A stretch of DNA of 46,950 nucleotides from Patescibacteria group bacterium (GTDB lineage: Bacteria; Patescibacteriota; Microgenomatia; Levybacterales; UBA12049), in contig JAMDAA010000001.1 of the NCBI GenBank assembly GCA_023484045.1, positions 1-46,950 of the forward strand. The letters are read 5' to 3'. Under the pieces are notes generated by a model. That model saw only the letters and a program-made list of their open reading frames with translations. It made no database searches and was not told the origin of the DNA. Of this stretch, positions 39,172 through 45,836 are shown one piece after another (the stretch's first letter is position 1; each line of letters starts with the position of its first letter). The position numbers were made by a program, and so were the translations under genes.

Positions 39172-39937
39172 AATCAAAGATCAAAGTGCAAAGCTCAAAA
39201 CCAAAGTGCAAAGCTCAAAACCTAGAACAGGAGGAACGGTAAAAACGGTTCGGTCATCTGCTTTAAAAACAGCTAAGAAACCAGCTGTTCAAAGAGTTAG
39301 TGGATTACAGATCGAGGTTTTTGACATAAAAGGTAAAGTTGTCAAAAAGATTAGTTTGTCTAAAGAAATTTTTGGGGTAAAAGTAAATAGGCAGCTTCTT
39401 TCGCAAGCCGTACGAGTATATTTAGCTAATCAAAGAGAAGGTACAGCATCGACCAAAACGCGCGGAGAAGTAAGAGGGTCGACCAGAAAGATTTACAAGC
39501 AAAAAGGGACCGGAAGGGCAAGACACGGTGCGATTCGCGCCCCGATTTTTGTTCACGGAGGAATCGTTTTTGGTCCAAAACCCAGAGATTATTCTTTAAA
39601 GCTTACTAAAAAAATGAGAAAAGCGGCATTATCTTCGGCATTGTCTTTAATGTATAAAAACAACGAAATAAAAATTTTGTCAGGACTTGGCGGTATAAAA
39701 CCAAAAACTAAAGAAATAGCAGGTGTTATTAAAAATTTGGGTCTTGATACTAAAAAAACCGATACTATTTTGATTTTGCCGGGCAAGGTCGAAAATGTTT
39801 ACAGGGCGGCAAGAAACATAGAAGGATTAGACATTACTTACGCGAATCAATTAAATGCGTATGAAATATTAGCGAGCAAGATGCTCCTTTTAATGGACGA
39901 ATCGATGCCTGTAATCGAAAAACATTTTGAAAGGTGA
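39158..39937 (+). CDS. rplD: 50S ribosomal protein L4 with about 45-aa N-terminal extension
   Basis: TKTRGEVRG...QKGTGRARHG...GGIVFGPKPR. Confidence 0.97.
   Translation: MPINKIKDQSAKLKTKVQSSKPRTGGTVKTVRSSALKTAKKPAVQRVSGLQIEVFDIKGKVVKKISLSKEIFGVKVNRQLLSQAVRVYLANQREGTASTKTRGEVRGSTRKIYKQKGTGRARHGAIRAPIFVHGGIVFGPKPRDYSLKLTKKMRKAALSSALSLMYKNNEIKILSGLGGIKPKTKEIAGVIKNLGLDTKKTDTILILPGKVENVYRAARNIEGLDITYANQLNAYEILASKMLLLMDESMPVIEKHFER
39182..39221 (+). repeat. 20-bp tandem duplication within the rplD 5' end
   Basis: caaagtgcaaagctcaaaac twice, embedded in (t/g/c)caaa units spaced about 7 nt. Confidence 0.85.
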
Positions 39938-39945
39938 GAATAATT

Positions 39946-40239
39946 ATGGATTTACAAAATATTTTAATAAGACCGATCGTTACTGAAAAATCGATGGCAG
40001 ACGCGGGAACTGGTAAATTTACGTTCGAAGTAGCAAAAGAAGCGGATAAAGGGATGATTAAGAAAGCGGTTGAAAATAAATTTAAGGTAAATGTCGTTTC
40101 TGTTTCGACGAGTATTGTTAAGGGCAAGAAAAAGAGGCAAGGAAATCGGAGAAAAGAAGTTTTGGGATCATCTTGGAAAAAAGCGATAGTAAGACTTAAA
40201 ACGGGTGAAAAAATCGGTCTTTTTGAGACCGTAAAATAA
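39946..40239 (+). CDS. rplW: 50S ribosomal protein L23
   Basis: ILIRPIVTEKS, WKKAIVRL; ATG start preferred over GTG 39934. Confidence 0.96.
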   Translation: MDLQNILIRPIVTEKSMADAGTGKFTFEVAKEADKGMIKKAVENKFKVNVVSVSTSIVKGKKKRQGNRRKEVLGSSWKKAIVRLKTGEKIGLFETVK

Positions 40240-40260
40240 TCCTTCGGCAAGGCTCAGGAT
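40239..40260. repeat. short palindromic repeat (ttcgacaagctca family)
   Basis: atccttcggcaaggctcaggat between rplW and rplB. Confidence 0.7.
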
Positions 40261-40267
40261 AAAATAT

Positions 40268-41011
40268 ATGAAAAAATTAAAGATAATTAAGAAAAAAAAT
40301 TCAGGTCGGGATAATTCAGGTCAGGTTGTTGTACGCCATCAGGGAGGCCAACATAAAAGATATTTGAGGACTATTGATTTTAGACGCGATAAGCTTGGAG
40401 TTTCGGGAAGAGTTGTATCGATCGAATACGATCCGAATAGAAGTGCTGATATAGCGCTTGTTCAATACGCAGACGGTGAAAAAAGGTATATTTTAAAACC
40501 GGAAGGATTGAAGCTAAATACTGTTATCGTTTCGGGTAAAATAGATATCGATCCAAAAATCGGAAACGCGATGCCGCTTGAGCTTATGCCGCTTGGCACT
40601 ATTGTTCATAGTGTTGAATTAACACCGGGTAAGGGTGCTCAGCTTGCGCGAAGCGCCGGAACATCGGCTGTTGTTACAGCTAAAGAAGAAGGCATGGTGC
40701 ATTTAAAACTTCCCTCGGGAGAAATGCGGAGGGTAAGAGTAGGATGTTTTGCGACGGTCGGACAACTTGGTAATATAGAATGGAAAAACGAAGTTTTTGG
40801 AACAGCGGGCCGCAAGGTAAGAATGGGAATTAGGCCATCTGTTCGCGGAGTTGCGCAAAACCCAAGATCTCATCCTCACGGAGGAGGAGAAGGTAGAAGC
40901 GGTATCGGAATGTCCACACCAAAAACTTTTTATGGGAGACCGGCTGTTGGAAAAACGCGAAAAAAGGGTAAATATTCAGATAAATATATTATTACAAGGA
41001 GGAAAAAATAG
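40268..41011 (+). CDS. rplB: 50S ribosomal protein L2
   Basis: [33 protein letters not shown]. Confidence 0.98.
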
Positions 41012-41295
41012 TGAGCAGATCAACAAAAAAAGGACCATACATAGATAAGAAATTAATGAAAAAAGTTATGATGCAAAAACAGAGTGGAGATAAAACGCCG
41101 ATTAAAACGTGGAAACGGTCGAGTCAGATTCCGCCGGAATTTGTGGGTCACACGTTTATGGTTCATAACGGCCGGAATTTTATTAATGTTTTTGTTGTTG
41201 AAGCAATGGTTGGGTATCGCTTGGGTGAATTTTCACCGACCAGAACATTTAGAAGTCACGGAAGAGTAGTCGCAAGAGAAATTTCAAAGACTTAA
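41011..41295 (+). CDS. rpsS: 30S ribosomal protein S19
   Basis: [26 protein letters not shown]; GTG start overlaps the rplB stop. Confidence 0.98.
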
Positions 41296-41299
41296 AAAT

Positions 41300-41683
41300 A
41301 TGGAAATTGTAGCTAGAAGTAAATCAGTAAGAATATCTCCTCGAAAAATAAGATTAGTCGCATCGGCGATTAAGAATATTTCGGTCGAAAAAGCATTAAT
41401 TTTACTTTCGACAGTGGAGAAAAGAGCTGCGATCGATATAGAAAAAACCTTAAAGAGCGCGGTCGCAAACGCGGTACACAACGGAAAACTTAATAAGAAC
41501 ACGCTTCTGGTTGATCGGATCGAAGTCAATGAGGGGCCGACGCTTAAAAGATTTCGGCCTTCGACAAGGGGTCGCGTTCATCCGTATAAAAAAAGAAGTA
41601 GTCACATAATGGTTGTCCTTCGTCCGGCAAAGCCGGATCAGGACAAGTTGTTAAAGGAGGTCAAAAATGGGACAAAAAGTTAA
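41300..41683 (+). CDS. rplV: 50S ribosomal protein L22
   Basis: RISPRKIRLV, SAVANA, RFRPSTRGR, KRSSHI. Confidence 0.97.
   Translation: MEIVARSKSVRISPRKIRLVASAIKNISVEKALILLSTVEKRAAIDIEKTLKSAVANAVHNGKLNKNTLLVDRIEVNEGPTLKRFRPSTRGRVHPYKKRSSHIMVVLRPAKPDQDKLLKEVKNGTKS
41617..41647 (+). repeat. short palindromic repeat translated within the rplV 3' end
   Basis: ccttcgtccggcaaagccggatcaggacaag; near-identical to 1882-1913. Confidence 0.75.
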
Positions 41684-42314
41684 TCCACAAATCTTAAGAC
41701 TTGGAACAATTTATAACTGGAGTAGCGTCTGGTTCGCTAAAAAAAGATATAAAGATCTTCTTTTAGAAGATTATAAAATCAGGAAAGCATTGATGGATAG
41801 GTTATCACACGCAGGCGTAGCAAAAATTGAAATCGAACGGTCGATAAATAGCCTGAGAATTACAGCGTACGTGTCGCGACCGGGAATCGTGATCGGGAAA
41901 TCCGGTGCGGGATTAGAAGAGCTCGAAAAATTCTTATTAACAGTTTTACCATTTAAAAAAGAGGGCAAGAATAATCCGAAAATCGATATTAGGGTAGAGC
42001 AGGTAAAAGAACCAAATTTAGATGCGTATTTAGTCGCAAAAAATATTTCGGACCAATTGATTAGAAGGGTAAGACACAAAAAAGTTATGATGCAAACGGT
42101 CGAAAAAGTTATGGGTGCAGGCGCCAAAGGAGTAAAAATCGTTTTATCAGGAAGAATCGCGGGCGCAGAAATCGGAAGACGGGAAAAGGCGCAAAGGGGT
42201 ACTGTTCCCCTGTCAACAATTCGGGAACACATAAATTTTGCGAGTGTTCCGTCTTTAACAAAAAAAGGTTATATCGGAGTAAAGGTCTGGATAAATAAAC
42301 CAGAAGGGAAATAA
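41667..42314 (+). CDS. rpsC: 30S ribosomal protein S3
   Basis: MGQKVNP, RPGIVIGKSG, SGRIAGAEIGR. Confidence 0.98.
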   Translation: MGQKVNPQILRLGTIYNWSSVWFAKKRYKDLLLEDYKIRKALMDRLSHAGVAKIEIERSINSLRITAYVSRPGIVIGKSGAGLEELEKFLLTVLPFKKEGKNNPKIDIRVEQVKEPNLDAYLVAKNISDQLIRRVRHKKVMMQTVEKVMGAGAKGVKIVLSGRIAGAEIGRREKAQRGTVPLSTIREHINFASVPSLTKKGYIGVKVWINKPEGK

Positions 42315-42324
42315 AAATGAATAG

Positions 42325-42445
42325 TAATTTGCTGAGGTCGATAACGAAAATTTTCTTGGATCGCAGACGGATAAAGCTCATTCTTTTCATCAAATCTTCG
42401 GCCGTAGTGCGACCAGCGAAAATTTTGTTATCTCCCCGCAAATTA
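42325..42445. repeat. about 120-nt imperfect inverted repeat between rpsC and rplP
   Basis: taatttgc/gcaaatta, gataac/gttatc, aaaatttt/aaaatttt, tggatcgca/tgcgacca and acgg/ccgt nested arms. Confidence 0.75.
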
Positions 42446-42456
42446 TATGGAGGTTT

Positions 42457-42864
42457 ATGTTAGTTCCAAGAAGAGCAAAATACAGAAAACAACACAGGGG
42501 TACGATGAAGGGAAACGCGCATGCTGGTACACGGATATCGTTTGGCGAGTTTGGATTAAGTTCAATGAGTACGGGTTGGGTTACGAGCCGCCAGATCGAA
42601 GCCGCAAGACGCGCGATCACGCATTTTACGCAAAGAGGCGGAAGAGTTTGGATCAGAATTTTTCCTGACAAACCGATTACAAAAAAACCTGCAGAAACGA
42701 GAATGGGAAGCGGGAAAGGTGATGTTTATGAATATGTCGTGACGATTAAACCCGGAAGAATGTTATTTGAAATGGGAGGAGTAACTAAAGATATAGCGTT
42801 TGAAGCTTTAAGACTGGCATCACATAAATTGCCGGTTAAAACAAGAATTGTTGAGAAAAGATAA
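42457..42864 (+). CDS. rplP: 50S ribosomal protein L16
   Basis: [25 protein letters not shown]; SD ggagg upstream. Confidence 0.98.
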
Positions 42865-42866
42865 TC

Positions 42867-43073
42867 ATGAAAACAAAAGACAAAAAAGAAATGTTTACAA
42901 AAAAGATTCCGGAATTAAAAGTGCTTCTTAAAGAAGCAAAGGACGCGTTGTTTAATTTAAAAATGGATCACGCGCAAAAAAAACTCAAAAACACGAAGTT
43001 GATTTTTGGAAAAAGAAAAGAGATCGCGAGAATTATGACAGCGATCAGAGAAGTAGAATTTACAAGCAAATAA
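42867..43073 (+). CDS. rpmC: 50S ribosomal protein L29
   Basis: position in the operon; LFNLKM...LKNT...RKEIARIMT. Confidence 0.92.
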   Translation: MKTKDKKEMFTKKIPELKVLLKEAKDALFNLKMDHAQKKLKNTKLIFGKRKEIARIMTAIREVEFTSK

Positions 43074-43074
43074 A

Positions 43075-43122
43075 TATGACCCTTCGATAAACTCAGGGTC
43101 ATAGTGAGGTATTCGAACTATG
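43075..43122. repeat. two abutting short palindromic repeats supplying the rpsQ start codon
   Basis: tatgacccttcgataaactcagggtcata plus catagtgaggtattcgaactatg. Confidence 0.8.
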
Positions 43123-43347
43123 AAAATATTAGAAGGAATAGTATTATCGGTAAAAAAACAGAACACTGTGATTGTCGAAGTTACAAGAAGAAAGCCTCAC
43201 CCTTTGTATAAAAAACTTATGAAGGTGAGTAAAAAATATAAAGCCGACACCGCGGGATTAAAGGTTGAACCTTTAAATAGGGTTAGAATCGGAGAAACGA
43301 GACCGATTTCCAAAGATAAACATTTTAAAATAATTAAAATTTTATGA
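43120..43347 (+). CDS. rpsQ: 30S ribosomal protein S17
   Basis: HPLYKK, ETRPISKDKHF. Confidence 0.97.
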   Translation: MKILEGIVLSVKKQNTVIVEVTRRKPHPLYKKLMKVSKKYKADTAGLKVEPLNRVRIGETRPISKDKHFKIIKIL

Positions 43348-43390
43348 TCCTGAGCTTGTCGAAGGATCATAGTGAGGTATTCGAACTATG
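43343..43390. repeat. two abutting short palindromic repeats supplying the rplN start codon
   Basis: tatgatcctgagcttgtcgaaggatcata plus catagtgaggtattcgaactatg (43367-43391 identical to 43099-43123). Confidence 0.8.
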
Positions 43391-43762
43391 ATACAACACA
43401 GAAGTATTTTAAAAGTTGCGGACAATTCGGGCGCAAAATCGCTTTCGGTTATTCATATTTTTGGCGGGTCAAAGAGAAGATATGGGTTTTTAGGCGATGT
43501 GTTAAATTGCGTTGTTAAAGAAGCGTCTCCCATAGGGCAAGTAAAGAACGGAGAGATTGTTAAAGTTATTTTGGTTCGAACACGAAAAGAACACGGGAGA
43601 TCTGACGGTTCATATATTAGGTTTTCGGACAATGCCGGTGTTATAATAGACAATCCGAAAGACAAAAATCCGAAAGCGACGAGGATTTTTGGACCGATTG
43701 CCAGAGAAGTTAAAGACAAAGGTTTTAATAAAATCGCGAGTATGGCGGAGGAGGTTTTATAA
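43388..43762 (+). CDS. rplN: 50S ribosomal protein L14
   Basis: [26 protein letters not shown]. Confidence 0.98.
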
Positions 43763-44067
43763 TGAAATTACGAAAGGGTGATGAAGTTAAAATAGTTTCG
43801 GGAAAAGATAAAGGAAAGACGGGAAAAATCGATAAGATTTTACTTAAAGTTAATAAAGTTTTGATTACGGGAGTAAATCAATATAAAAAACATATGAAGT
43901 CAAGATCTCAAAAACAAAAATCGGAAATTATTACAATCACAAAGCCGTTACCCGTTTCAAATGTTCAACTGATGTGTCCGAAGTGTCACGCGATAACAAG
44001 AGTCGGTTTTACAAGTGATGCCGATAAAAAAGTCAGGGTTTGCGCTAAATGTGATCAACAGATATAA
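43762..44067 (+). CDS. rplX: 50S ribosomal protein L24
   Basis: KOW motif KGDEVKIVSGKDKGKTG, SNVQL, CPKC...C. Confidence 0.97.
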   Translation: MKLRKGDEVKIVSGKDKGKTGKIDKILLKVNKVLITGVNQYKKHMKSRSQKQKSEIITITKPLPVSNVQLMCPKCHAITRVGFTSDADKKVRVCAKCDQQI

Positions 44068-44070
44068 AAA

Positions 44071-44637
44071 ATGAAAAGTAATAATAATTTAGAAGAAAAA
44101 TTTAAAAAAGAAATCGTGAAGAGCTTGCAGGAAGAACTTGGGATTAAAAATCCGATGGCAGTGCCTAAAATTACAAGAATCGTCGTCAACATGGGAGTTA
44201 AAGACGCGATCGCGGACAAAAAGAATATAGAAAAAGCGTCTGGTATTCTTGCTCAGATAACAGGACAAAAACCAAAAGTTACAAAAGCAAAAACATCGAT
44301 TGCAGCGTTTAAATTAAGGGAAGGACAGGAAATCGGACTTATGGTAACATTACGCGGTAAAAGAATGTATGATTTTTTTGAAAAATTAGTCGATATCGTT
44401 TTACCAAGACTCAGAGATTTTCACGGGGTCAGAAAAACGAGTTTTGACGGACACGGAAATTATTCGCTCGGATTTTCTGAATTTACGGTTTTTCCCGAGA
44501 TCGATCAGGGAAAAGTGGAAAGAGTTCAGGGTTTGGAAATAAATATTGTTACAACGGCAAAAAATAACAAAAACGGATTTGTATTACTTGAGGCACTTGG
44601 AATGCCGTTTGAAAAGAAAGGTGAGGTTAAAAAATAA
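44071..44637 (+). CDS. rplE: 50S ribosomal protein L5
   Basis: VPKITRIVVNMG, SIAAFKLREG, LPRLRDFHG. Confidence 0.98.
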   Translation: MKSNNNLEEKFKKEIVKSLQEELGIKNPMAVPKITRIVVNMGVKDAIADKKNIEKASGILAQITGQKPKVTKAKTSIAAFKLREGQEIGLMVTLRGKRMYDFFEKLVDIVLPRLRDFHGVRKTSFDGHGNYSLGFSEFTVFPEIDQGKVERVQGLEINIVTTAKNNKNGFVLLEALGMPFEKKGEVKK

Positions 44638-44640
44638 AGT

Positions 44641-44826
44641 ATGGCAAAAGTTTCGAGTATAGTTAAATTCAAAAAGAAACAGAAATTTACCGTTCGGGAG
44701 AAAAACCGATGCAATCTTTGCGGGAGATCACGAGGTTATATGCGGCGTTTCGGAGTGTGCAGAATGTGTTTCAGGGAACTCGCGATGAAAGGAGAATTGC
44801 CAGGAGTGGTTAAATCCAGCTGGTAG
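44641..44826 (+). CDS. rpsN: 30S ribosomal protein S14, zinc-binding (type Z)
   Basis: 61 aa; RCNLCGR...CRMCFR four-Cys motif; LPGVVKSSW. Confidence 0.97.
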
Positions 44827-44846
44827 TTTGGGTAAAACTCACTATG
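44822..44846. repeat. degenerate short palindromic repeat overlapping the rpsN stop and rpsH start
   Basis: ggtagtttgggtaaaactcactatg, variant of 45232-45254. Confidence 0.6.
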
Positions 44847-45236
44847 AATTATCAAGTTTCAGATTTTGTTATAAGACTTAAAAACGCTTGTTTAGCAAAA
44901 AAAAGAGAAATTACGACACCTTACACAAAGATTGGCAAGGCGATCGGTGATGTTTTGGTAAAAGAAAAATATTTAGATAGTTTAAGACAGGAAATAGTTG
45001 ATGGTAAAAAATTTTTAAAAGCGAAAATAAGGTACGAGAAAAGAAGACCGGTTTTGAGTGAAGTAATGATTATTTCAAAACCATCACTTAGAATTTATAT
45101 ACAGGCTAAAAAAGAAACGAAGAGAAAAAACAAAAATATGGGAATTTCAGTTGTTTCAACAAACTTAGGGATCATGACGGAAAAGGAGGCAAAGCTTAAA
45201 GGAGTCGGAGGAGAACTTCTCTTTACTCTTTGGTAG
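44844..45236 (+). CDS. rpsH: 30S ribosomal protein S8
   Basis: SDFVIRLKNA, ISKPSLRIY, VSTNLGIMT, GVGGEL. Confidence 0.97.
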   Translation: MNYQVSDFVIRLKNACLAKKREITTPYTKIGKAIGDVLVKEKYLDSLRQEIVDGKKFLKAKIRYEKRRPVLSEVMIISKPSLRIYIQAKKETKRKNKNMGISVVSTNLGIMTEKEAKLKGVGGELLFTLW

Positions 45237-45254
45237 TTCGACAAGCTCACTATG
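45232..45254. repeat. short palindromic repeat overlapping the rpsH stop and rplF start
   Basis: ggtagttcgacaagctcactatg. Confidence 0.8.
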
Positions 45255-45836
45255 TCAAAAATTGGAAGAATGCCGATCGAAATAAAAGAGGGAGTCAATA
45301 TTACTGTCGAAAATGGACGGGTAAAAGTTAGTGGTTCAAAAGGTGAGTTATCGTTTGTTTTACCGAAGCAAATAGAAGTAAAAACCCCTTCGACAAGCTC
45401 AGGGCAAGGTGAAAATAATAAAATAATCGTTTCTCCAAAATCCGATGATAAAAATTTAAGACCGGTGTTTGGATTAACAAGAGCGCAGATCGCAAATATG
45501 GTTAAAGGAGTAACAGATGGGTTTGAGAAAAAACTAGAACTTTCGGGAGTCGGATACAGGGCGCAAACTACAGGTGATGAACTTGTTTTATCTCTCGGTT
45601 TTTCGCATCCTGTTAAAATTAAAGCTACGCCTGGAATAAAATTTGCGGTCGCGGAAAACGTTATTACGGTGTCCGGTATAGATAAAACATTGGTCGGAGA
45701 CATTGCGGCAAAAATTAGAAAAGTCAGACAACCCGATCCGTACAAAGCAAAAGGAGTTTCGTATCAGGGTGAAAGAATTAGAAGAAAGGCCGGTAAAGCG
45801 ACGAAAGCTGTAGGAGGCGCCTTGGGCGGAAAATAA
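45252..45836 (+). CDS. rplF: 50S ribosomal protein L6
   Basis: MSKIGRMPI, GVGYRA, RQPDPYKAKGV. Confidence 0.98.
   Translation: MSKIGRMPIEIKEGVNITVENGRVKVSGSKGELSFVLPKQIEVKTPSTSSGQGENNKIIVSPKSDDKNLRPVFGLTRAQIANMVKGVTDGFEKKLELSGVGYRAQTTGDELVLSLGFSHPVKIKATPGIKFAVAENVITVSGIDKTLVGDIAAKIRKVRQPDPYKAKGVSYQGERIRRKAGKATKAVGGALGGK
45386..45408 (+). repeat. short palindromic repeat inserted in-frame in rplF
   Basis: cccttcgacaagctcagggcaag encoding PSTSSGQ. Confidence 0.8.

Follow-up and report, generated by a model that had tools for sequence, protein, structure and literature searches.

Short hairpin repeats at gene junctions and start codons of an S10/spc operon in a Levybacteria-type bacterium

Repeats in the S10/spc segment

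The stretch of DNA described here (“the window”; 46,950 nt) is contig C9 of the 900-kb genome of an ultra-small, Levybacteria-type bacterium (“the host”, G000; 38 contigs, 37% GC). Positions 39934–45836 encode rplW, rplB, rpsS, rplV, rpsC, rplP, rpmC, rpsQ, rplN, rplX, rplE, rpsN, rpsH, and rplF, i.e., part of an S10/spc operon, and several junctions between these genes are occupied by short palindromic repeats, as noted in a preliminary description of the sequence. Here, we describe these repeats as members of a structured, high-copy family of small hairpins that are present or absent by insertion, and we describe a composite form, the “start-codon cassette,” that carries both a Shine-Dalgarno (SD) sequence and the start codon of the gene behind it. 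The host was compared with the whole genome of a relative of the same genus (“the congener”, G001) and with other relatives (G003, etc.); gene junctions were compared across 30 relatives, and transposase genes and a 17-mer from the family were surveyed in 41 genomes.

The segment 40239–45410 holds nine family copies (Table 1), seven at gene junctions and two in frame inside rplV and rplF. The seven junction copies had been listed previously, and all are present in the sequence, each as a short hairpin whose stem varies and whose loop corresponds to TTCGACAAGCTCA in direct or reverse-complement form; the two in-gene copies were absent from that list. The exact 13-mer TTCGACAAGCTCA occurs in the window at 43351 (−), 45237 (+), and 45389 (+). 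With up to two mismatches, the window has six matches against 1.43 expected, a number reached by none of 100 shuffled sequences. Five of the 13 operon junctions are occupied, compared with about 8% of gaps across the genome.

Four genes begin within a repeat: the word ACTATG provides the ATG of rpsQ, rplN, rpsH, and rplF. Upstream of rpsQ and rplN, an identical 25-mer, TCATAGTGAGGTATTCGAACTATGA, is found at 43099 and 43367 (0 expected), and it is itself a family copy in reverse orientation (loop TGAGGTATTCGAA vs TGAGCTTGTCGAA). Its loop contains GAGG because four central bases are altered from CTTG to GTAT. Both of these copies hold an SD (GAGG in the loop) as well as a start codon (ATG in the last arm), as the preliminary description had proposed. 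Its observation that repeats overlap the TGG TAG ends of rpsN and rpsH also holds, since the stop codon of each gene is the 5′ arm of the hairpin that follows. The rpsH-rplF copy contains no SD.

The hairpin family and the start-codon cassette

A scan of the host genome (0.9 Mb) for TTCG-N(3–20)-CTCA with complementary flanks (stem ≥3 bp) gave the genome-wide census that had been called for: 87 copies, compared with 5–10 in control sequence that was reversed or shuffled. The basic unit is 21–24 nt long and consists of a 3-bp stem (usually YCC/GGR), a conserved loop of 13–14 nt (TTCGRC..CTCA), and often a CAAG tail. The stems co-vary, with CCC/GGG, TCC/GGA, GCC/GGC, CAC/GTG, TGC/GCA, TAG/CTA, TGG/CCA, and ATAC/GTAT all represented. 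The loop ends, TTCG and CTCA, are fixed, and loop centers fall into sub-families (ACAAG, ACTTCG, ATAAA, and others). Non-coding DNA makes up 9% of the host genome and holds 55 of the 87 copies (63%). The other 32 (37%) lie inside genes, in frame, where all three sense frames are represented (PSTSSGQ, PFDKLRA, and LRQAQGK), as is antisense reading (PELVEG). Relative to transcription, 13 copies between genes have the same orientation and 20 the opposite one; inside genes, 25 are sense and 7 antisense.

The whole window had no family match in Rfam at the gathering score, and a search of 40100–45500 at E below 5 gave nothing but noise. The 17-mer CCTTCGACAAGCTCAGG is present in 31 of 41 relatives, with zero matches for its reversed control, and it is also found in >120 viral contigs that range from 32 to 72% GC, often with longer, lineage-specific stems. 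A strand test of G.T against A.C pairs in the basic units of the host and the congener had too few cases. At C31 2813–2950 of the host, between divergent genes, lies a tandem array of six hairpin units with a period of 24 (AGTAG-TTCGATAAACTCA-CTACT-A), which is missing at the orthologous site in the congener.

The start-codon cassette is a derived composite of 44–47 nt in which two units stand inverted to each other; it occurs mainly in Microgenomates, for instance in Levybacteria. Its layout is ATGA-YCC-loop1-GGR-TCATNN-TGAGGWATTCGAA-NNATGA; we refer to its two halves as hairpin 1 and hairpin 2, to their loops as loop 1 and loop 2, and to the outer words as ATGA#1 and ATGA#2. Before rpsQ and rplN, hairpin 2 reads TCATAG-TGAGGTATTCGAA-CTATGA. 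The gene starts at the last ATG of the cassette, and at rpsQ and rplN, the GAGG of loop 2 lies 10 nt upstream of that ATG. The TCAT in the center of the cassette is complementary to both the first and the second ATGA. The host has two further copies, one before a membrane-protein gene and one, with hairpin 2 only, before gap (GAPDH). Among orthologues of the membrane-protein gene, ATG has given way to GTG at the start codon and TCAT to TCAC in the opposite arm, a compensatory change; the host copy has the GTG/TCAC pair.

Cassettes were searched for by hairpin 2 only (TCATNN-TGAGGWATTCGAA-NNATGA), i.e., with the 5′ ATGA outside the pattern. Named genome records gave 26 loci, mostly in Levybacteria, Curtissbacteria, Gottesmanbacteria, and other Microgenomates or Patescibacteria metagenome-assembled genomes (MAGs). 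Full cassettes were also found in several MAGs labelled Gammaproteobacteria, and there was one apparently chance match in Mucilaginibacter. The hairpin-2 pattern was present in 79 metagenome contigs and in none of the viral contigs searched. De-duplication left 96 distinct cassettes; a real open reading frame (ORF) follows almost every one, and they precede at least 48 gene families. The genes behind them include those for S17, L14, L24, L36, L5, L2, and L18. Because they also include those for GAPDH, RmlA, FtsX, SmpB, NusB, NrdR, and many others (among them Prs, RecO, YebC, and response regulators), the cassette is not a ribosomal-protein device, and a role specific to ribosomal-protein stoichiometry, as first suggested, is not supported.

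The stems of the cassette are kept by compensatory change. Stem pairs were counted by position, since a MAFFT alignment mis-registered hairpin 1. The arms of hairpin 2 are Watson-Crick in 88 of 96 cassettes and are of seven types (AG/CT, AC/GT, AT/AT, GG/CC, GC/GC, GT/AC, and AA/TT). Hairpin 1 is present in 71 of the 96, every one of which begins with ATGA, and its inner stems are of five Watson-Crick types (CCC/GGG, CAC/GTG, TCC/GGA, TAC/GTA, and CTC/GAG). At two genes, one for a membrane protein (MxxLLQSLLL) and one starting MTATGHA, hairpin 2 is kept with compensatory changes across genera. Non-Watson-Crick pairs in cassettes are mostly G.U on the mRNA strand (9 vs 3 A.C), which hints, weakly, at a role of the fold in RNA. 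Folded in isolation, all 71 cassettes that have hairpin 1 are predicted to have a more stable hairpin 1 (7 bp; mean −7.8 kcal/mol) than hairpin 2 (6 bp; mean −3.1 kcal/mol). In the host copies, the predicted minimum-energy fold has a 6-bp hairpin 1 stacking on hairpin 2 (5 bp) and leaves GAGG mostly unpaired.

The cassette lies directly 3′ of an old ATGA, and the old start codon, or the old overlapping stop/start, thus survives upstream of it. In relatives that lack the cassette, rpsQ and rplN often overlap as GGAGG-N7-ATGA; others have a 1- to 4-nt gap. In the congener, the junction reads GGAGGAACAAAA-ATGA-(cassette)-TACAACAC, i.e., the ancestral SD and ATGA are kept directly upstream of the cassette, and in the host, the first ATGA still supplies the stop codon of rpsQ. 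Upstream of ATG#1, 31% of cassettes have an SD-like word, compared with 9% of random windows. In a tandem double cassette, the ATGA that closes the first is the one that opens the second. The presence of ATGA at both ends fits a 4-bp duplication and an element-borne end alike.

The distance between ATGA#1 and ATGA#2 is 44 nt in 20 cassettes, 45 nt in 21, 46 nt in 4, and 47 nt in 26. With a spacing of 44 or 47 nt, the ORF that begins at ATG#1 (e.g., MTLRQAQGHSEVFEL*) ends on a TGA that overlaps the new ATG, and this ORF is open in 43 of 46 cases; with a spacing of 45 nt, it ends on a TGA in loop 2. Two of the 71 cassettes would let ribosomes read out of frame into the gene.

Two observations from metagenomes concern the cassette; the host genome is present in mine-tailings samples (runs X1 and X2). 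In run X1, the summed contig depth across 43073–43163 is about 307 over the cassette vs about 12 in flanking sequence, and loose ends lead into other genes, e.g., rpmJ and an ftsX-like gene; near-identical cassette sequence is therefore common to many co-occurring genomes in this mine-tailings sample. In addition, metagenome ORFs starting MKVAHIF and MKIAHVF represent an acylphosphatase-like gene behind a cassette, with an apparent in-frame basic unit (..FILRQAQDLPL..).

Insertion, turnover, and candidate mobilizers

The preliminary description had asked for the junctions to be compared in relatives for empty sites. Most of the 30 relatives have 1–4 nt or overlapping stop/start codons at the rpmC-rpsQ, rpsQ-rplN, rpsN-rpsH, and rpsH-rplF junctions. 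Because these junctions are empty in most relatives, the copies are insertions rather than conserved regulatory sites. The family does not fit the picture of a motif confined to these junctions and conserved in distant taxa, which the preliminary description had named as the mark of a regulatory site. With sites empty in relatives and a family spread across the genome, the repeats behave as insertions of the type of repetitive extragenic palindromic (REP) elements or of MITEs (miniature transposable elements with inverted repeats), in agreement with the REP-like nature originally proposed.

The congener has 26 family copies vs 87 in the host. Its rplW-rplB site is vacant (TAA-TAGA-TATATG), giving a net insert of 21 nt in the host, and its rpmC-rpsQ junction is also vacant (TAA-CT-ATG; more fully, TAA-CT-ATGAAAATA), such that the rpsQ cassette is a 44-nt insertion by comparison. 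At rpsQ-rplN, the congener has a cassette whose loop 1 is oriented as usual (CCC-TTCGACAGGCTCA-GGG); none of the other 28 relatives compared has one there, and most of them show an overlapping ATGA or a 1- to 4-nt gap. At the rplV site, the congener has a canonical unit, GTCC-TTCGACAAGCTCA-GGAC-AAG, encoding ..VVLRQAQDKLL.., where the host encodes ..VVLRPAKPDQDKLL..; the nested hairpin adds 9 nt, in frame, and the host unit has a predicted fold of −22.3 kcal/mol (z −3.7). The eight residues PSTSSGQG encoded by host rplF are missing from all 29 aligned relatives.

Pairs of filled and empty sites in the host and the congener reveal exact inserts of 21 nt, 24 nt, 44 nt (rpmC-rpsQ), and 48 nt. The two 48-nt composites, at C10 22133 and C32 73101, are inverted doublets. 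A 24-nt insert without target duplication is exemplified by TCCTTCGACTCCGCTCAGGACAAG at C7 3532. Around the basic 21- and 24-nt units in these pairs, neither a target duplication nor an obvious fixed target is seen. As these comparisons show, the basic unit inserts precisely, without target duplication, both between genes and in frame inside genes. The proposal that terminal arms copy the local target is borne out in part: the cassette is bracketed by ATGA at both ends, and the central TCAT pairs with either. However, the NN positions of the arms appear to be borne by the element and to evolve by compensatory change rather than to be copies of each target, and the lack of duplication around basic units also runs counter to the proposal.

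Other genera hold independent family members at rpsN-rpsH, rpsH-rplF, and rplN-rplX, which makes these junctions recurrent landing or retention sites. The rpsN-rpsH junction, which spans 1–10 nt in most relatives, is occupied in four other genera (G003, G007, G009, and G010), and rpsH-rplF, which reads tggtaa-(1–4 nt)-atg in most relatives, has other family members in four genera (G003, G009, G011, and G023). Orthologous sites have also undergone turnover, in which elements are inverted or replaced, with the loop inverted at rpsQ-rplN between the host and the congener, and at rpsN-rpsH between the host and G009, which has the same TAG/CTA arms around an inverted loop (TGAGCTAGTCGAA).

REPs and REPINs (inverted REP doublets) are mobilized by REP-associated tyrosine transposases (RAYTs) (Bertels and Rainey 2011, PMC3116915). 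No RAYT or GIY-YIG gene with the family repeat on its flanks, the candidate mobilizer put forward in the preliminary description, was found. The host has nine diverged PF01797-type Y1/RAYT-like genes of 210–235 residues, with HUH and Y motifs (Table 1), and the congener has none. Most of the nine have a TTGACA-like word upstream. The palindromes around these genes are low-copy, gene-specific, and unrelated to TTCG..CTCA, and a family copy lies within 700 nt of one of the nine. Because the flanks of the Y1 genes are unrelated to the family, the linkage that defines REP/RAYT systems does not hold here, and RAYT is rejected as the cognate mobilizer on the available evidence. Across the 41 genomes, the number of Y1 genes correlates with that of elements (Spearman 0.47, uncorrected for phylogeny; Y1 counts outside the host never exceed 5 and are possibly lower bounds). 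In the same survey, one genome (G016; 97% complete) has 14 units, four loop-2 motifs, and no Y1 gene, and the congener has 11 units, one cassette, and no Y1 gene.

Table 1. Family copies in the S10/spc segment (window positions) and Y1/RAYT-like genes of the host (contig positions).
Feature	Position	Strand	Composition and setting
Single hairpin unit	40239–40260	+	ATCC-TTCGGCAAGGCTCA-GGAT; between rplW stop (TAA ends at 40239) and rplB start (40268)
In-frame unit at 3′ end of rplV	41615–41647	+	GTCC-TTCG[TCCGGCAAAGCCGGA]TCA-GGAC-AAG; small second hairpin nested in loop
Two-hairpin start-codon cassette before rpsQ	43076–43123	+	ATGA#1 (43076–43079), CCC, loop 1 TTCGATAAACTCA (43083–43095), GGG; TCATAG (43099–43104), loop 2 TGAGGTATTCGAA (43105–43117; SD GAGG), CTATGA (43118–43123; ATG at 43120); from sequence, fold, and comparison with the congener
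Two-hairpin start-codon cassette before rplN	43344–43391	+	ATGA#1 (43344–43347, holding rpsQ stop TGA), TCC, inverted loop 1 TGAGCTTGTCGAA (43351–43363), GGA; TCATAG, loop 2 TGAGGTATTCGAA, CTATGA (ATG at 43388); from sequence, fold, and relatives
Degenerate hairpin	44824–44846	+	TAG-TTTGGGTAAAACTCA-CTA(TG); rpsN stop (TAG, 44824–44826) to rpsH start (44844)
Hairpin	45234–45254	+	TAG-TTCGACAAGCTCA-CTA(TG); rpsH stop (TAG, 45234–45236) to rplF start (45252)
In-frame 24-nt unit inside rplF	45385–45409	+	CCC-TTCGACAAGCTCA-GGG-CAAG; encodes PSTSSGQG
Y1 gene, C1	11266–11895		
Y1 gene, C12	7119–7805		
Y1 gene, C35	8962–9612		
Y1 gene, C35	18125–18817		
Y1 gene, C14	33868–34518		
Y1 gene, C6	5456–6124		
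Y1 gene, C38	5823–6494		
Y1 gene, C38	32582–33247		
Y1 gene, C36	29609–30292		

Possible origin and mode of action

We consider it probable that the S10/spc segment has been colonized by a miniature, non-coding hairpin insertion element, likely selfish, whose design keeps the downstream gene translated. Such an element would persist at tight junctions by bringing its own SD and AUG. Hairpin 1 opens with the ATGA of the target and, being more stable, would tend to hide the old AUG; hairpin 2 has GAGG in its loop and closes with the new ATGA, the gene start. A ribosome arriving from the old AUG or from the upstream cistron would terminate within the cassette or on the UGA that overlaps the new AUG, and could then re-initiate at the new AUG. 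At rpsH and rplF, UAG and AUG stand at the two feet of one stem, 15–17 nt apart, which is within reach of a terminating bacterial ribosome, and termination-reinitiation coupling may be possible.

Several points weigh against this explanation. No transposition event, intermediate, or mobilizer was observed, and the compensatory change in an orthologous cassette and the retention of hairpin 2 across genera also fit regulation that benefits the host. The mini-ORF's bias in frame, which at first looked highly significant, is confounded, since 15-nt loops are rare in the basic family too; for this reason, we down-weight the bias and do not take the shortage of 46-nt spacings alone as proof of selection. 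Competing conformers are predicted, with several copies pairing loop 1 with loop 2 in a REPIN-like fold that masks the SD, and weak stems are predicted at rpsH and rplF (z about 0). The window was found in metagenomic DNA runs and in one RNA-labelled run (~6% of sampled words), and metagenome contigs over the cassette gave no usable indel or end data.

A bolder possibility, which we entertain only tentatively, is that the cassette is a mobile, self-contained translation-initiation module that homes to ATGA starts by TCAT pairing, hides the old AUG in hairpin 1, presents the SD in a loop and the AUG at the foot of hairpin 2, and works as a three-arm RNA toggle. In the toggle, TCAT may pair with ATGA#1 or ATGA#2, and pairing of loop 1 with loop 2 may mask the SD; it may be set by ribosomes coming from the upstream cistron or out of a relay ORF of 15–16 codons.

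Three rival explanations bear on the same observations. That the hairpins serve the host as regulatory RNA (as operators of translation, as sites for processing or stability, or as a riboswitch-like, three-arm toggle), kept for control and spread only secondarily, would account for the conservation of hairpin 2 with compensatory changes at orthologous genes across genera, for an SD that is always in the loop and an AUG always at the same stem position, and for the preference for G.U among non-Watson-Crick pairs on the mRNA strand; alternative conformers would permit switching. However, the same junctions are without elements in most relatives, the elements differ between two species of one genus, the basic unit is also found in frame inside proteins in both orientations, functionally unrelated genes are served, and there is no Rfam match; we regard this explanation as improbable. 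We likewise give little credence to an origin without transposition, and less to it than to any other explanation discussed here: copies would arise and spread by template switching during replication, quasi-palindrome correction, or short-patch gene conversion between similar initiation regions. The loop inversions at orthologous sites (rpsQ-rplN and rpsN-rpsH) are typical of a stem-mediated flip or of template switching, tandem arrays and tandem cassettes occur, and 270 bp separate the new rpsQ cassette from the older one at rplN, their 25-mers being identical. By contrast, precise 24-nt inserts with the same loop occur in dozens of unlinked, unrelated contexts, including protein interiors, and an identical 17-mer is found in viral contigs of 32–72% GC. 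Moreover, loop 1 of the rpsQ cassette differs at 3 of 13 positions from that of the rplN cassette in the congener, which is the nearest loop of like orientation, and it agrees with loops found at other places in the genome.

The remaining rival is that these are classical REP/REPIN elements, or elements derived from IS200/IS605 in the manner of palindrome-associated transposable elements (PATEs), moved in trans on single-stranded DNA by Y1 HUH transposases of the host, with the target ATGA read via TCAT. In IS200/IS605 elements and PATEs, hairpins are recognized as single-stranded DNA, insertion takes place, with no duplication, 3′ of a fixed word of four or five nucleotides, and the target is read by pairing with a guide internal to the element. 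TCAT:ATGA is a formal analogue of such guide-target pairing, in anatomy only, and no full-length element bearing TnpA and these ends was found in this analysis. Consistent with this rival are the nine PF01797-type genes in the host and none in the congener, whose elements are 3–4 times fewer, the correlation of Y1 and element counts, the REPIN-like arrangement of the cassette as an inverted doublet, insertion 3′ of a fixed tetranucleotide, and the lack of target duplication around basic units. It nevertheless appears unlikely: the Y1 genes bear low-copy palindromes of their own, with a family member nearby in one of nine cases, G016 and the congener carry elements without a Y1 gene, the loop is conserved rather than the stem, neither a GTAG nor a CGTC tag is present, and the correlation has the limits given above.

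REPs are palindromes with a GTAG or CGTC tag (Di Nocera et al. 2013, PMC3733652). Like REPs and REPINs, the present family consists of short, high-copy hairpins, often in inverted doublets that can fold into a larger hairpin; the 44- to 47-nt cassette and the 48-nt composites are such doublets, and pairing of loop 1 with loop 2 is the minimum-energy fold in several copies. The location is also similar, i.e., between co-directional genes, with some copies in genes, probably transcribed, and in a genome with Y1-type transposase genes. Unlike REPs, which have a conserved palindromic stem and a tag, this family has a conserved loop and a variable stem. It has no conserved GTAG/CGTC tag, the GGTAG at rpsH and rplF being the Trp codon and stop codon of the upstream gene. 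Other differences are that 32 of the 87 copies are in coding sequence and hence not extragenic, that the Y1 genes are not flanked by the TTCG..CTCA repeat, and that the cassette carries an SD and a start codon.

Rickettsia palindromic elements (Ogata et al. 2000; summarized in PMC10969869) are about 100–150 bp long and encode a conserved peptide. They are selfish palindromes that lie in frame in essential genes and add a short peptide, a trait with parallels here in L6 (PSTSSGQG) and in the tail of L22. By contrast, the units described here are 21–24 nt long and are read in any of three frames, on either strand. The SDR1–8 elements, small dispersed repeats in Nostoc/Anabaena (Elhai et al. 2008, Genome Res 18:1484), are reportedly hairpin units of 21–27 nt with compensatory changes, and they are said to insert without target duplication, to nest, to have no associated gene, and to be confined to one cyanobacterial subgroup. 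The present family resembles SDRs in behavior only, having 21- to 24-nt units, a co-varying hairpin, no duplication, no associated gene, and nesting (in the rplV loop and at rpsH-rplF in G003). Sequence and lineage differ, with this loop being found in candidate phyla radiation (CPR) genomes and in viral contigs of 32–72% GC, and we know of no start-codon cassette described for SDRs. Double-hairpin elements in the mitochondria of the fungus Allomyces (Paquin, Laforest, and Lang 2000) are reportedly small, mobile, two-hairpin repeats found between genes and in frame in coding sequence. As in Allomyces, presence varies between close relatives, but those elements are organellar and of unrelated sequence, are not anchored to start codons, and have no ribosome-binding site.

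Literature searches with the loop sequence and the encoded peptides gave only chance matches, a search on hairpin repeats in Patescibacteria found no description of these elements, and a 2024 review of prokaryotic MITEs contains no MITE that supplies a start codon or SD. We did not find a bacterial miniature repeat described as lying on start codons and providing both SD and ATG, and no such arrangement is described for the closest known systems compared here. Miniature repeats are usually seen as intergenic passengers; here, they are placed to the nucleotide on the stop/start codons of essential, coupled ribosomal-protein genes, and a derivative, the cassette, takes the place of the ribosome-binding site and start codon in at least 48 gene families. 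If its design neutralizes its own insertion or modulates coupling, the cassette would be a natural, very small, portable initiation module, a handle on the translation coupling kept in reduced CPR genomes, and a repeat amenable to study in which the loop is conserved and the stem varies. If the cassette is indeed a homing, toggling module, it would be a selfish element turned into a portable device for rewiring how translation is coupled in reduced genomes, and the conserved loop, common to phyla and phages, would be recognized by a universal factor of some kind. For annotation, the inserts yield spurious peptides (PSTSSGQ, FDKLR, LRQAQ, and PELVEG) and shifted starts.

Other sequences also occupy junctions of this operon. 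The 142-nt rpsC-rplP spacer (42315–42456) holds a different, MITE-like insert with a long inverted repeat (predicted fold −41.4 kcal/mol, z −3.4). This insert is missing in the congener and in most relatives, which have a 1- to 4-nt gap, and related arms are found at C22 1800–1943, at C34 812–866, and on several contigs of the congener. At loci L007, L014, L021, L028, and L029, the rpsC-rplP, rpsQ-rplN, and rplE-rpsN junctions are filled by unrelated repeats made of 7- to 10-nt tandem words with mirrored arms (e.g., CTCAAAACTCAAATGTCAAAACTCAAAA...TTTGAGCTTTGCGTTTTG). In L025–L030, from relatives of family f2, rpmJ (L36; MKVQASVKKRC...) lies between rplX and rplE, a position it does not have in the host or its own family. 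Lastly, L179 and L185 (G023 and G009) share another two-hairpin composite at rpsH-rplF, common to two genera, which consists of ACCC-TTCGRCTAACGCTCA-GGGT followed by TTGTTAT-TTAAC-ATAACAA-T and ends directly at the ATG of rplF, indicating that more than one type of double hairpin abuts start codons.

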